64,000 nt of DNA from an uncultured Chloroflexia bacterium (GTDB lineage Bacteria > Chloroflexota > UBA6077 > JACCZL01): positions 1 through 64,000 of the forward strand of contig CAVXYC010000016.1 of the NCBI GenBank assembly GCA_963765765.1, written 5' to 3'. Positions 14,941 to 21,454 of this stretch are shown one piece after another (within the stretch, counting starts at the first letter, position 1; the number at the start of each line of letters is the position of its first letter). The position numbers and the translations under genes were made by a program. Below the pieces are notes generated by a model, which worked only from the letters and a program-made list of their open reading frames with translations, had not been told where the DNA came from and ran no database searches.

Positions 14941-15471
14941 TCAGTGCTCCTCGTGATCCACGCGCAGTGAGCGCAGGATTCTCGAGACCATGTTGTAGAA
15001 GCCGATTGTCGCGGTGAGCTCCATGATCTCCTGATCGTTGAAGTGAGCGCGCACGGCGGCGAAGGTGGAGTCGTCCGCGTCGAACTCCCGAGTGATTTGC
15101 TCAGCGTACGCGAGCACTGCCCGCTGCATGTCGGTGAAAACGGTGCTGGTGCTCCAGTTGGCCAGATCGTCGATCTGCGCCTGACTCACGCCCTCTTTCA
15201 CGGCGATGGGAGCGTGCGCCTGCCATTCATAATCTGCTCCGGAGATCTGGGCGACGCGGCAGATGGCCAGCTCGCGCATGTCGCCTCTCAGGGACGACTC
15301 CATCCGCACGGCCGTACCCATGTGGAGCCAGCCTGAAGCGATGGCCGGGCTATTCATGAGCAGCTTGTAGAGGTTGAGCATGCGCCCGCCGCGCTCGCGC
15401 TTGATCTGCTCCACCAGCGGCTTGAGCTCGTCCGGAACCGTGTCTGGGTTAACCAGTGGGATGCGCGCCAT
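14941..15471 (-). CDS. Carboxymuconolactone decarboxylase (CMD/AhpD-like) family protein
   Basis: RELAICRVAQISGADYEWQAH and ELTATIGFYNMVSR. Confidence 0.9.
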   Translation of the reverse strand: MARIPLVNPDTVPDELKPLVEQIKRERGGRMLNLYKLLMNSPAIASGWLHMGTAVRMESSLRGDMRELAICRVAQISGADYEWQAHAPIAVKEGVSQAQIDDLANWSTSTVFTDMQRAVLAYAEQITREFDADDSTFAAVRAHFNDQEIMELTATIGFYNMVSRILRSLRVDHEEH

Positions 15472-15575: not shown

Positions 15576-16106
15576 TCAGTGCGCCTCTGAGTCCACCCTC
15601 ATGGTTCGTAGCACGCGCGATACCATGTTGTAGAACCCGATGGTTGTCACCAGCTCCAGCGTATCGCGCTCATTGAAGTGCTCACGCACGGAGCTAAAGA
15701 GCGCATCGTCCGCGTCGAGCTGTGAGGTCATAGAGTCGGTGAGCTCCAGCGCAACCCGCTGCGCCGGCGTATAGACATCCGAACCGCGCCAATCGCGCAG
15801 CGCATCGATCTGCGCCTGGGTTGCGCCGTCCTTGATGGCGAACGGCGCGTGTGCCTGGAACTCGTAGTCCGCGCCATTCGTGAGTGCGACGCGACAGATG
15901 GCGAGCTCGCGGATCGCGCCGTCCAGCGTGCCGCGGAAACGAACGGCGCTGCCCATGTGTATCCAGCCCTCGGCGATCGGCGGACTATTCAGGAGCATGC
16001 GGAAGAGATTCGATACATTGCCACCGCGCTCGCGTCTGATAAGCGCGATCGTCTCCTGTAGCTCTGCAGGGGCGGTTTCGGGATCGATATAAGGGATTCT
16101 GGCCAA
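15576..16106 (-). CDS. CMD/AhpD-like family protein (tandem paralog)
   Basis: Same length (176 aa) and same motifs as the neighbouring gene (RELAICRVA...DYE.QAH, IGFYNMVSR). TTG start. Confidence 0.9.
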   Translation of the reverse strand: MARIPYIDPETAPAELQETIALIRRERGGNVSNLFRMLLNSPPIAEGWIHMGSAVRFRGTLDGAIRELAICRVALTNGADYEFQAHAPFAIKDGATQAQIDALRDWRGSDVYTPAQRVALELTDSMTSQLDADDALFSSVREHFNERDTLELVTTIGFYNMVSRVLRTMRVDSEAH

Positions 16107-16211
16107 TTGGTAACTCCGATGAGAGGTGAGTTAACTGTTGACAGTTAACAGTGAGAGACGAAGCATTGGCCGCTGATAGCGCGTGCCGTTACTGTCGACG
16201 ACTGTAAACCG

Positions 16212-16490
16212 TCAACTCCGTTTTGCCTTCGCGTCGGCGCGGCGGAAGAGCGATTGTGACATACCTGCGCGGATCGCCATGATCCAGGCAATGGCGGCGT
16301 CGATTTCGGCGTCGCTTGCGCCAGCATGCCTCGCACCTACGAGGCGACGCTCCGTTCAAGGCTCGCAGTTGCCGGTGATGACAACGGCCAGACCAATCAA
16401 GGCTTTAGTCTTGGGATCCAGAGCGTCGTTGTCTCGACAGTGGGCGTACCACTCCTCGAACTCTTCGAACACATTGACGGAGTCATCCAT
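16212..16490 (-). CDS. Small AhpD/CMD-like candidate selenoprotein (CxxU), absent from the ORF track
   Basis: Manual translation: MDDSVNVFEEFEEWYAHCRDNDALDPKTKALIGLAVVITGNCEP[TGA]TERRLVGARHAGASDAEIDAAIAWIMAIRAGMSQSLFRRADAKAKRS. The CMD pattern continues in frame past the TGA at 16356-16358. Confidence 0.8.
16323..16351 (-). promoter_or_regulatory. Candidate bacterial SECIS element
   Basis: 3' of the UGA: AGCGU-C-GCCUCG-U-AGGU-G-CGAGGC-AUGCU. This is a stem with a bulge and a GGU-containing apical loop about 17 nt from the UGA. Confidence 0.7.
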
Positions 16491-16573
16491 GGCGGGTTCC
16501 CTGGTGAAAGTCTCCGCGCATGGTAGCAGAGGTTTGTTCGATCAGCGCCTGCTAAGAAGGCTCAGTTAACGCC

Positions 16574-18368
16574 CTAGTATGGCCGTCGCCGCAGCCGGCC
16601 CGCTGATCGCTGGCGATGCAATCGCGAGTGAAGCACGGTTGCCGACCGCCCTTCGGCTCTCACCGGGGTGGATCGCGATGAGTGGGGGGTTTCGATCTCC
16701 GCGAAGAGCTCGCGCACTTCGTCGGCTTCAATGGTCTCCCGCTCCATGAGTCGCTTTGCAACCCGCTCAATGGTGGACCGATTGGTGCTCAGGATCTCGT
16801 GGGCCAGGCGATGGGCATGAGAGATCACCTTACGGACCTCCCGGTCGATCGCACGAGCGGTATCCGAGCCAACCCCTCGATACTCATCCATGTCGTAGCC
16901 GTAGCCCGCTCCGGCAATAGCCATGGGGCCAATCCCCTTGCTCATGCCGAACGAAGTCACCATGCGCCGGGCCATCTCCGAGGCACGCTGAAGGTCGTTT
17001 GAAGGCCCGGTAGTGACCTCGCCGAAGATGAGCTCCTCTGCCACGTGTCCGCCCATCGCGCAGGCTATCGCCGCCTCGAAGTCGGACTTGCGCCACATGT
17101 TGCGATCCTCCTCTGGAGCCAGACGCGTATAGCCGCCGACCATGCCCCGCGAGACGAGCGAGATTTTCATGACTCGGTCCGCGTTCGGAAGCGCGGCCGC
17201 CACCAGCGCGTGGCCCACCTCGTGATACGCGGTGATCACGCGTTCTTTCGCGCTGAGGAGGTGACTCTTGCGGCGTGGTCCAGCCACAACGCGGTCCAGT
17301 GCCTCCTCGAGCTCCAGCTGGCCGATACTCGTGCCCTCTCTGCGGGCGGTAAGGATGGCCGCTTCGTTGAGTACGTTTTCGAGATCCGCACCCGAGAGCC
17401 CTGTGCTCTGCCGTGCCAGGTAATCCAGGTCGGCGTCTTCCGCGAGCGGTTTCCCGCGCGCATGCACATCCAGTATCTGTCGACGCCCCGCGGCATCGGG
17501 CAGGTCCAACTGTACCTGCCGATCAAAGCGGCCCGGCCGCAACAGTGCCGGATCCAGAATGTCGGCGCGGTTCGTCGCGGCCAGCACGATCACAGCACTG
17601 CGATCGCTGAACCCGTCCATCTCTACCAGAATCTGATTCAGCGTCTGTTCGCGTTCCTCGTGCGAAACACCCGCGTGGCCACCGCGGCGGCGTCCCACCG
17701 CGTCTATCTCATCGATAAAGATGATGCACGGTGCCAGCCTGCGCGCTTCCTGAAAGAGGCTTCGAGCACGCGACGCACCGACACCGACGTAAAGCTCTAC
17801 GAACTCCGAGCCCGAGCTCGAAATAAATGGCACACCCGCTTCACCCGCGACCGCTCGTGCGAGGAGCGTCTTACCAGTACCAGGCGGGCCTACCAGCAAG
17901 GCTCCACGAGGAACACGCGCGCCCAGAGCCGTGAAGCGGTCCGAATTACGGAGGAACTGAACAACCTCCTCAAGCTCTTCTTTTGCCCTCTTCAACGCCG
18001 GCCACATCTTTGAACCGGGTGGTCGGGCGCTCCGCGGTGATCGTCTTGAAATGATTCGAGGATAGGATTTTGCTGGGCGAGGAAACAGTTGACCTGGGAG
18101 TTTCCTCAGGAGCCGCGGATCTGGCGCGAGAGGCTAGCGCGGAGCGCACGCCGAAGACGAGCAACGCCGCGAGCGCTATTGCGGGAACAATGAGGTATAC
18201 GCCGTTCAGCCATTGAGTCCACTGTGTGAAGTCCGCCAGCCCGGCGTTGGTCAGCGTATTGAGCCACGGTACGCTCAGTGCGACCAATGTCACGATAAGT
18301 AAGAATATCGCGAAGGTTCCCATACCGTTGGGTGCTTCACCTCCCCCAAACCCACGTCCCCGAGCCAT
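16574..18368 (-). CDS. ftsH: ATP-dependent zinc metalloprotease FtsH (frameshift near 17985)
   Basis: Two N-terminal TM segments, [32 protein letters not shown]...LRPGRFD and HEVGH. Confidence 0.93.
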
Positions 18369-18489: not shown

Positions 18490-20740
18490 CTAGGAAGCGG
18501 GCGCGAGATGTTTCGCCGTCAATGAGTCAGGGACGCCGAGGAGGTCGCGAGGAGTGCCCGCGAATACCACCTCACCGCCGCGACTGCCACCCTCCGGACC
18601 CATGTCGATGATCCAGTCGGCGTTGCGGATCACATCCAGGTTGTGCTCGATGACGATCACGCTATTCCCGCTGTCCACGAGACGGTTCATAATCGCCAGC
18701 AGGTGGGTGATGTCCGACATATGCAGGCCCGTTGTCGGCTCGTCGAGCACGTAGACGCTACCTTCCTTATGGAGCTCACTGGCCAACTTGATGCGCTGAC
18801 ACTCGCCGCCCGAGAGCGTGGAAAGCGGCTGTCCCAGGGTCAGATAGTCCAGGCCGACGTCGCTCATCGCCTGAAGCTTGCGGCGGATCATTTTTTGATG
18901 GAAGAACTCCAACGCCTCAGCGACGGTCAGTGCCAGCACATCGTTGATGGACTTGCCGTCAAGCTTGTATGCCAGGACCTCGTCCTTGAATCGACGCCCT
19001 CGCAGATCTCGCAGGGAGTCTTGATGCCATCGAGAAATGCCAGGTCCGTGTAGATCACACCAGAGCCCTTACAGTTCTCGCAGGCGCCTTTTGAGTTGAA
19101 GCTGAACAGACCCGCATCAGCTTTATTGGCACTGGCGAACGCCTTCCGGATGTCGTCCATCACGCCGGTGTACGTGGCTGGGTTTGATCGTGAAGTGGTT
19201 CCGACCGCTGATTGATCGATCACAATCGCTTCCGGATGCTGGCGCAGAAACACGTCCTCGATAAGCGAGCTCTTGCCCGACCCCGCCACGCCGGTGATGA
19301 CTGTCAGCACGCCCACGGGAATATCCACGTTGACGTCCTTCAGGTTGTTTGCGCGCGCATTCCGCACGGGAAGCGTTCCCGCGGGCGCCCGCACGTCTGT
19401 CTTCATGGGCAGTGAACGCTGAAGATACTGTCCCGGTGAGCGTGTCCGCCTTCAATAGATCCTGGAAGCTGCCTTCGAAGACGATCTCACCGCCCGCGGT
19501 CCCGGCATGAGGGCCAACATCGACAATGTGATCGGCTCCCTCGATGACATCGCGATCGTGCTCCACCACCAGTACAGTGTTGCCCTTGTCGCATAGCTTT
19601 CGGAGTAGCTCATTCAGCCGATGCACATCGCGCGGATGGAGACCAACGCTCGGCTCATCAAAGATGTACATCACGTCAACCAGGCTGCTTCCCAGGTGCT
19701 TGACCATCTTGACGCGCTGCGATTCACCGCCCGAGAGAGTGTCAGTCTCCCGATTTAGACTCAGGTACTCCAAGCCGATGTCGGCCATGTGCTGCAGCCG
19801 CTCCACGAGGGCATCGACCATCGGCGCGGCAACGGAGTCGGTGATCTCCCGAAGGACCGGGATCAGATCGCCGATCTCCATGCTCGACAGCTCGGCAATG
19901 TTGCGACCGTTGATTCGACAGCTCAGCGTGGCCTGGCTCAGGCGGGCTCCTTTGCAGAGCGGGCATGGCTGAGGCCTGATGTACGGCGCGACGGCCTTCT
20001 GGGTGCGCTCGGAAAGCGTCTTGAGGTCGCGACGCACATACGACTTCTCAATCTTCTCGATGATGCCCATATACGTGGCGTTCATCGTGGTGGCATCGCC
20101 TATCTTCAGCGGGTACTTGCGCGGCTTGCTATAGAGCAGCAGGTCCAGCTCTTCAGGTGTGAAGTCACCAAGCTTCTTGTCGTTGTCGAAGAACCCGGAC
20201 GCCGCGTACCACTTGGACTCCCAGGAGGCGAAGAACGGCACCTGGATGCCACCATCATTAATTGACTTGGAGTAGTCGAGAAAATCATCGGCAATCACCC
20301 CGAGCTTCCTGCCGATGCCGTTGCACTCCGGGCACATGCCCTGCGGATCATTGAACGAGAATGCGTTGGAGTACCCTATGTGAGGCTGACCGACGCGAGA
20401 AAAGAGCAGGCGCAGAAGCGTGTAAATGTCAGTGATCGTTCCCACCGTGGAGTGTGACCCGCCACCAAGCCGCTTCTGGTCCACGATCACCGCCATACTA
20501 AGGTTCTCAATGGCGTCCGCGTCCGGCTGCGGGTACCGGGGCAAGAAATTCCGGACGAACATGCTGAAGTTCTCGAAGAGCTGCCGCTGCGCTTCGGTGG
20601 CGACCGTGTCGAAGACGATTGAGGACTTGCCCGAGCCCGAGACGCCGGTGAAGATGGTGATCTTCCGTTTCGGAATCCTGAGCGACACGTTTTTCAGGTT
20701 GTTCTCGCGCGCCCCCGCGAATCTCGATGTATTCGGACAC
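18490..20740 (-). CDS. uvrA: Class II UvrA / DrrC-like ABC ATPase (frameshifted)
   Basis: [30 protein letters not shown], a second Walker A GVAGSGKS, and [12 protein letters not shown]. Shorter than canonical UvrA. Confidence 0.88.
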
Positions 20741-20867
20741 GTTCCACCTTCCGCGTGAGTGGCCCCGGGAGGTTTAGAGGGTACAGAGCCAACGGGGCTA
20801 AGGTGAAACGAACGGAACGGCGCGAGGGCGCGGAATTCGGAACCTTCTCTTTTCTGATCGCAAGCCA

Positions 20868-20954
20868 TAGCAACGGGCTTCCAGCCCGAACGCGCAGCGC
20901 GTGAACTACCTTTACTAACCTTGCTACGCGTACCGGGTGGAAGCCCGTTGCTAC
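20868..20954. repeat. GTAG-type REP inverted doublet
   Basis: TAGCAACGGGCTTCCA ... TGGAAGCCCGTTGCTAC. Confidence 0.7.
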
Positions 20955-20977
20955 GTGACTCTTGTGAGACGGAGCTG

Positions 20978-21454
20978 CTACTCCACACCCAGCTCCCGGG
21001 CTAGCGCCTCAAAGAGCTCGCGACTGCCCTCCTCACGCATGCGCGGGGCATCTTCGGAATCGAAATATGCTCCCTGCTCGGTGAATGTCAGACGCACCCC
21101 CTCGCCAGTCGGCTCGAGCTCAACAGTTGCGAGCGACGCTGAGATGGGTGAATCTTCGACGGCCATACGGTAGGCGAAAACGATGCGCCACTCTGGCACG
21201 ATGTCCAGATAGATGGTCTCGTTGATGATCGGCGGCCCGCCCTGGTAGCGGAATCGTGAGAATTCCCGCCCTCCGACCCGAAAGTCGGCGGTGTACTCCT
21301 CAACTTCCCATCCCTCGCCTTCGGCGAACCAGCGACGCTTGGTCTCCAGGTCGGCGAAAGCAGCGAAGACGCGGGCCGGCGAAGCGGCGAAGGTTCGTTC
21401 AATACTGAATGTGCTATGGATGGCGAACGGCTTGCCTGTCATCTTGTCTATCAT
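20978..21454 (-). CDS. SRPBCC (AHSA1-like) domain protein
   Basis: HSTFSIERTFAASPARVFAAFAD...DFRVGGRE...YLDIVP..RIVFAY...LTFTEQGAY. Confidence 0.9.
   Translation of the reverse strand: MIDKMTGKPFAIHSTFSIERTFAASPARVFAAFADLETKRRWFAEGEGWEVEEYTADFRVGGREFSRFRYQGGPPIINETIYLDIVPEWRIVFAYRMAVEDSPISASLATVELEPTGEGVRLTFTEQGAYFDSEDAPRMREEGSRELFEALARELGVE

Follow-up and report, generated by a model that had tools for sequence, protein, structure and literature searches.

Selenoproteins of the CMD/AhpD-like kind have been catalogued since 2005, when a study of the Sargasso Sea reported AhpD-like (27 sequences) and CMD-domain (4 sequences) proteins with a CxxU motif (Zhang et al., 2005; PMC1088965). In 2008, 70 sequences from the GOS data were listed as 'AhpD-like 2, pfam02627, CxxU', a family described there as commoner in non-marine samples (PMC2398784), and a 2026 review names the 'CMD-like protein PF02627 CxxU' among the prokaryotic selenoprotein families, with CxxU also carried by the C-terminal AhpD-type domain of the multi-Sec proteins MduS and ArsM/AhpD (PMC13188914). 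BSepDB includes Sec-rich Chloroflexota from the class Dehalococcoidia (PMC13326102). RclX, a small CMD protein with a CxxC motif, gives Pseudomonas aeruginosa protection against HOCl and HOSCN (PMC7950407). AhpD of Mycobacterium tuberculosis, which reduces AhpC, belongs to the same fold family and has a CxxC-type redox site. The second Cys of AhpD is the attacking nucleophile, and the AhpD subunit is larger than a single domain of ~90 residues.

The gene considered here lies at 16212..16490 in a window of 64,000 nucleotides from an uncultured Chloroflexia bacterium, the window being the whole stretch of DNA that was analysed, and it adds a member to this already catalogued kind, as far as the published descriptions allow the two to be compared. 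It shares with the AhpD-like 2/CMD selenoproteins, as these are described, the same Pfam family, a CxxU motif with Sec in second position, homologues with Cys in that column and a SECIS element 3' of the UGA, and differs from them, by the same descriptions, in coming from a narrow clade of soil Chloroflexota. On the comparative sequence evidence given below, we consider it very probable that this is a real selenoprotein gene, in which the UGA at codon 45 is decoded as selenocysteine by means of the hairpin and SelB. The features referred to in the text are the following:

16212..16490, minus strand: candidate selenoprotein gene, 92 codons plus a terminal TGA, encoding a predicted CMD/AhpD-fold protein with the motif C42-E-P-U45
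16490-16488, minus strand: start codon ATG, from the sequence and its translation with TGA read as U
16365..16367, minus strand: TGC codon of Cys42, the partner of Sec45 in CxxU, in a column that is invariant in 13 of the 13 rows of alignment A1
16356..16358, minus strand: in-frame UGA, codon 45, probably read as selenocysteine, aligned with the second CxxC Cys of 7y4r, 3bey and 1vke
16328..16345, minus strand: putative SECIS upper stem-loop, GCCUCGU-AGGU-GCGAGGC, with 7 bp, a 4-nt loop containing GG, a UGA-loop gap of 17 nt and an energy of -10.8 kcal/mol
16323..16351, minus strand: entire predicted hairpin of the window's genome, including the lower stem AGCGU/AUGCU and a bulged C, from folding
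16212..16214, minus strand: terminal TGA, read as stop, with orthologues ending a few codons away at most

The original prediction had proposed a frame that opens with the ATG at 16490, continues through an in-frame TGA at 16356-16358 and ends at 16212, and both the sequence and its translation confirm it; with TGA read as U, the product comprises 92 residues and reads ...GNCEP-U-TERRLVGARHAGASDAEI... around the site. The gene had indeed been missed by ORF calling, the table 11 list holding only a 44-aa ORF at 16356..16490 that ends at the in-frame TGA. The Pfam family CMD (PF02627) matches the read-through product with an E-value of 3.2e-12 (46.7 bits vs. a cut-off of 23) over residues 12-76, a span that includes the TGA; the family pattern does resume in frame after this codon as had been claimed, and the alignments with 7y4r, 3bey and 1vke agree in placing the TGA in the column of the second CxxC Cys. 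The reading frames of the orthologues close with TAG in three genomes (G005, G006, and G003) and with TGA in a fourth (G007).

The distribution of Sec and Cys codons was followed across the window's taxonomic family, of which 10 genomes, including the window's own genome assembly (G000; 33 contigs, 91.84% complete), were searched with stops read through. An orthologue was present in 8 of them, at 62-74% identity, with TGA in the codon-45 column of five (G000, G005, G006, G007, and G003) and TGC in that of the other three (G002, G008, and G009), which belong to one genus, while this search returned no orthologue from G001, which is of the same genus as the window and 92% complete, or from G004 (80% complete). 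One of the five TGA orthologues comes from an unpublished genome (G006), and the conclusion is independent of it. Across 401 sampled genomes of the phylum, a match at E<=1e-6 was obtained in 69, and six match rows contained one TGA (G000, G005, G007, G055, G224, and G344); in the distant G055 and G224 the TGA once more fills the U position of C-x-x-U. The TGA forms are spread over five genera of the family and these two more distant genomes. Cys occupies the column in the metagenome proteins P0002-P0005 and P0007. Searched with the family profile, the best 150 of 2,896 metagenome cluster representatives included seven proteins ending exactly at ...NCQP, one residue short of the Sec column (P0051, P0063, P0069, P0071, P0077, P0132, and P0145), and P0006 ends likewise; we ascribe these termini to gene callers halting at the Sec codon. 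The original prediction had put the TGA where the family has a Cys, and among the homologues examined the column was always occupied by TGA or by Cys (TGC), never by another residue. At E<=1e-30 the search returned a single cluster representative among 1.84 billion proteins, and the closest public relatives are filed as 'Chloroflexota bacterium', forming a narrow clade of soil Chloroflexota. A scan of genome contigs with the single protein retrieved no relatives, whereas the alignment-based scan did recover them.

The second element of the prediction was a hairpin directly 3' of the TGA, and AGCGU-C-GCCUCGU-AGGU-GCGAGGC-AUGCU is confirmed as the minimum-free-energy fold of the RNA at this place. 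Compared with shuffled sequences, the fold of 63 nt gave z = -0.94, with 33 of 200 shuffles as stable, and that of 60 nt gave z = -1.76, with 10 of 200; since the DNA is GC-rich, the stability of the hairpin is by itself weak evidence, and its weight derives from the comparison with relatives. The bacterial SECIS consensus comprises a loop of 3-9 nt with a G in its first two positions, an upper stem of 4-16 bp, a distance of 16-37 nt between UGA and loop and an energy of -7.5 kcal/mol or lower (PMC13188914). These rules were applied by a script to seven TGA forms and three TGC forms. A hairpin was found in 7 of the 7 TGA forms, with a spacing of 17-18 nt, a stem of 6-7 bp and an apical loop of 3-4 nt (AGGU, GGGU, GGGC, or GUG), while none of the three TGC forms had a qualifying one. 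Six of the seven TGA forms agree with every rule, the exception being G224 with an energy of -7.1 kcal/mol. The hairpin in the window, whose likeness to a SECIS element had been proposed, does conform to the published consensus (7 bp, AGGU, 17 nt, -10.8 kcal/mol), and is the most stable among the orthologues.

The comparison extends to the codons that the stem overlaps. The residues encoded by the stem are RRLxGAR in the Sec forms vs. RRITGAK or RRIRGAK in the Cys forms, and the four stem codons that have their third base within the stem (CGC, CUC, GCG, and AGG) are all identical across the five TGA forms of the family, as compared to 5 of the 39 other codons for the same residue in each form (hypergeometric p ~0.001, hand calculation). 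Within the stem, G224 shows one compensatory change from C-G to U-A, the window a change from C-G to U-G, and the stem register of G055 is offset by one base; a formal covariation test on the seven sequences was not significant, with one double-change pair and 142 of 500 shuffles scoring as high. The lower stem AGCGU/AUGCU varies among the orthologues, whose folds differ, and as it is unconserved only the upper stem was counted as the SECIS element. An Rfam search of the hairpin region returned no family, the matches being at chance level (E>=1).

Evidence for translation beyond the TGA comes from the substitutions. For the 39 codons 3' of the TGA, dN/dS ranged from 0.07 to 0.54 (dS 0.38-1.86) in the 28 pairs among eight orthologues, and it was similar for the 36 codons 5' of the column. 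As judged from these ratios, translation and purifying selection extend over the region 3' of the TGA. The window and the public contigs of related strains disagree at 10 positions within the gene, which on hand reading comprise 8 synonymous third positions and the two residue changes E9D and R19G; all four differences located 3' of the TGA are synonymous third positions. The original prediction proposed that raw reads be inspected at 16356-16358, and this check was made in part, the sequence support at the site consisting of assembled contigs: the codon is TGA in both public contigs that cover it, one of which (X3) possibly comes from the source sample. Record 5 of X3 covers 16318-16468 with 0 differences and keeps the TGA, and record 8 of X4, from a related strain, has the TGA at 16356-16358 unchanged. 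The latter record is a contig of 1,196 nt from an RNA library, covering 16225-16900 with 16 differences and one insertion, and its extension over the gene is not proof of transcription.

The genome also encodes most of the machinery required. In G000, selA (555 bits, cut-off 268) and selB (312 bits, or 337 when summed over the frame so as to include its C-terminal part; cut-off 242) adjoin each other on contig C14 with intact frames, and selD (382 bits, cut-off 125) lies at C21:109702-110619 (locus L010). The selD gene carries an in-frame TGA of its own, in the motif GAG-U-ACK, and a hairpin of 8 bp that begins 10 nt after that TGA; it is itself a selenoprotein gene. An selA gene was found in 10 of the 10 family genomes. 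The original prediction had made the presence of sel genes in the source genome a point on which it could fail, and this presence was verified for selA, selB and selD, all above curated cut-offs, and not for selC in its canonical form. A canonical tRNA-Sec, of 97-100 nt and 62-73 bits, was found in 5 of the 5 relatives searched, the same-genus G001 included, where it measures 98 nt, while in the 33 contigs of G000 (91.84% complete) ARAGORN, Rfam, blastn and fuzzy motif searches did not find one; both blastn with the tRNA-Sec of the five relatives and the fuzzy motifs returned nothing. Likewise, no tRNA-Sec adjoins selAB or selD in G000, or lies beside the regions of G000 similar to the flank of the tRNA-Sec in G001.

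Several candidates for this tRNA were considered and rejected. The sole tRNA-SeC(tca) call of ARAGORN at default settings (C15:168062-168147; locus L144:263-348, minus strand) is 90% identical to the tRNA-Leu(taa) at C20:72127-72211 and was dismissed as a decayed copy of it. In this gene 2 of the 7 acceptor-stem pairs are mismatched and the D stem is disrupted by one mismatch, while the anticodon arm, variable arm and T arm are intact and the discriminator is A73, as in the tRNA-Leu parent; Rfam recognises it, at 33 bits, as a plain tRNA rather than a tRNA-Sec, its best matches in the relatives are ordinary tRNA-Leu(taa), and no integrase was found beside it. The best Rfam match to tRNA-Sec (47.7 bits, with 150 of 835 candidates scored genome-wide) is a tRNA-Ser(gct) according to ARAGORN. 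Two additional tRNA-SeC candidates, which ARAGORN returned at 90% of its default thresholds, were without Rfam support, and at 80% the output was noise.

Three other explanations of the in-frame TGA have to be set against selenocysteine decoding. The gap in the tRNA set favors the view that the lineage once used Sec here and that the organism has since lost selC, leaving the UGA as a stop codon in a gene that is now decaying: a canonical tRNA-Sec was missed by four approaches in G000 when every one of five relatives has one at 62-73 bits, and two neighboring genes, FtsH and a UvrA-like gene, look broken, being split into overlapping ORFs. Such a relic is nonetheless hard to reconcile with intact selA and selB frames, with an selD that needs Sec at its own UGA, with a hairpin that is more stable here than in any other orthologue (-10.8 kcal/mol) and with strain differences 3' of the TGA that are synonymous in four cases out of four, and we hold it to be improbable. 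The assembly moreover lacks ~8% of the genome, and tRNA genes commonly go unassembled; the absence of selC from G000 is read as a putative assembly gap.

A simple pseudogene, or a sequencing error that turned TGC into TGA in a Cys-type CMD gene, might be invoked on the grounds that the two codons are one base apart, that Cys forms occur in the same family and that the region contains apparent frameshifts. The probability of this is very slight, given that TGA recurs in the same column in five genera of the family and two distant genomes, that it is always paired with a hairpin and the Cys forms are without one, that dN/dS downstream is well below 1 and that two other contigs carry the TGA. It seems hardly more credible that the UGA is decoded as Leu by the tRNA-Leu-like tRNA of C15 with its UCA anticodon. 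Although this is the only tRNA gene with such an anticodon found in the assembly, and its anticodon, variable and T arms are intact with the A73 discriminator of a tRNA-Leu, its acceptor stem has two mismatches in seven pairs, its D stem is disrupted and none of the relatives has such a tRNA, their best matches being ordinary tRNA-Leu(taa); besides, a Leu in a CxxC/U redox site would make no functional sense, and TGA also serves as an ordinary stop in this organism, for instance as the terminal codon of the gene at 16212..16490.

With selenocysteine at codon 45, the reading that we prefer, the product can be placed among proteins of known structure. The AlphaFold2 model, computed with a 13-row alignment, has a pLDDT of 92.9 and contains four helices (residues 3-20, 26-39, 43-55, and 60-91), with the C-E-P-U motif at the turn into helix 3, and the product is predicted to be a four-helix subunit of the CMD/AhpD fold. 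Its Foldseek matches are small CMD proteins, namely RclX (7y4r; TM 0.70-0.75), O27018 (3bey), TM1620 (1p8c/1vke), and TTHA0727 (2cwq). RclX of P. aeruginosa (E 1.9e-7) and O27018 of Methanothermobacter (E 1.2e-5) are the closest solved structures by sequence and also by fold, both being CMD proteins of small size that have CxxC at the same site and are deposited as six chains. Six chains are in fact deposited for each of the four PDB relatives detected at the sequence level, which makes a hexamer a reasonable assumption, and by analogy the protein is probably a homo-hexamer.

Identity to RclX and O27018 is 29-34%, and the active site departs from theirs: where these proteins have Cys, Glu and His, the present one has Sec, Ala30 and Arg49. 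Arg49 stands in place of the His found four residues after the second Cys in 7y4r and 3bey, and Ala30 in place of the Glu of their T-x-E-L helix. We take this pair of His and Glu positions to form the proton relay of AhpD. Ala30 and Arg49 occur in all the close orthologues, in Sec and Cys forms alike, while the distant Sec forms G055 and G224 retain both Glu and His. The model for the AhpD core domain (TIGR00778) scores 20.7 bits, below its cut-off of 27.8. As the clade is devoid of the Glu and His of related CMD proteins, it may be something other than a classical AhpD-type hydroperoxidase; as compared to AhpD itself, the protein has a single domain of ~90 residues and is without the relay residues, and no AhpC partner was seen adjoining its gene. 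The original prediction of an AhpD/CMD-like, 92-aa Sec-dependent redox protein is therefore supported by homology, by the Sec/Cys column, by the hairpin and by selA, selB and selD, with the restrictions that 'AhpD' applies to the fold only, the Glu and His being replaced, and that the kind had already been published.

If the established bacterial pathway operates here, SelB loaded with Sec-tRNA(Sec) would bind the hairpin and insert selenocysteine at the UGA, giving rise to the 92-residue protein and not to the 44-residue stub. Following the chemistry of the fold family, Sec45 would then be the nucleophile that attacks an oxidised substrate, and Cys42 would resolve the Sec45 adduct to form a selenenylsulfide, which a thiol donor would reduce. 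The target of such a thiol/selenol oxidoreductase cycle could be an oxidant or a partner protein in its oxidised form. The role of the second Cys of AhpD as nucleophile fits the presence of Sec in that position. The function of RclX, the nearest characterised relative, offers a lead on the substrate and is not a test of it.

A more specific proposal is that the protein is a stand-alone selenol/thiol module of one soil Chloroflexota family whose chemistry or partner would be other than peroxide reduction, for instance the handling of a metalloid or organoselenium intermediate. This is suggested by Ala30 and Arg49 in the close clade together with the nearest curated relatives being methyltransferase-fused AhpD-type domains, and we regard it as speculative and rather unlikely. 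The best NCBIfam matches of the protein are to the AhpD-type domain of MduS (NF045649) with 54 bits vs. a cut-off of 380, at positions 234-316 of the 338 of the model, that of ArsM/AhpD (ArsM_AhpD_UU, NF041537) with 45.4 bits vs. 510, at positions 263-342 of 345, and GSU3128 (NF041047) with 34.6 bits vs. 110. Unlike MduS and ArsM/AhpD, it stands alone, without a methyltransferase domain, and no MduS-type gene was found in the G000 genome.

Because this clade scores under the cut-off of every NCBIfam model, automatic annotation will go on missing the gene, for which a correctly delimited selenoprotein gene can now replace the 44-residue stub of standard calling. What is known of selenocysteine decoding is left unchanged. 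The clade does offer a clean natural comparison, its Sec and Cys forms being ~70% identical and the Cys forms having no hairpin and altered residues where the stem is encoded, and could for this reason be useful for testing what Sec contributes to an AhpD-fold active site.

The neighborhoods of the orthologues differ, and the gene thus seems to stand alone. Downstream lie two CMD paralogues in the window, DsbD_TM in G005 and a GT4 glycosyltransferase in three other genomes, and synteny provided no functional clue. The G005 neighbor, encoded on the same strand as the orthologue (L064:3359-4108), is a thiol-disulfide membrane protein of the DsbD_TM/CcdA type and a possible redox partner; it was not seen beside the orthologues in the other genomes. 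Upstream of the orthologues in three relatives there is an ORF of ~304 residues without a Pfam family (L064:2020-2934, L066:954-1868, and L069:1928-2848), 53-66% identical between genomes, for which tblastn found no counterpart in G000.

In the window, the gene is preceded by an FtsH gene (16574-18368, minus strand) that appears as two overlapping ORFs in different frames, one with the N-terminal membrane part (17970-18368) and the other with the AAA and M41 peptidase domains (16574-18007), an apparent frameshift or assembly indel. A UvrA-like ABC ATPase at 18490-20988 on the minus strand is apparently broken as well, into three overlapping ORFs (19123-20988, 18927-19406, and 18490-18939). Directly downstream of the selenoprotein gene, two CMD-family paralogues of 176 residues each lie in tandem on the minus strand (14941-15471 and 15576-16106); both are without CxxC at the usual site, and their best NCBIfam match, 'YciW-related (seleno)protein', is well below cut-off. 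Scans for promoters and terminators around the gene gave nothing useful. A perfect palindrome, GTTAACTGTTGACAGTTAAC, occupies 16130-16149, in the interval that separates the selenoprotein gene from the next CMD gene, and a third copy of its half-site, GTTAACTG, is found at 16563-16570, 73-80 nt upstream of the selenoprotein start. The half-site occurs 3 times in the 64 kb as compared to 0.42 expected, and palindrome and half-site may represent a putative operator common to both genes.
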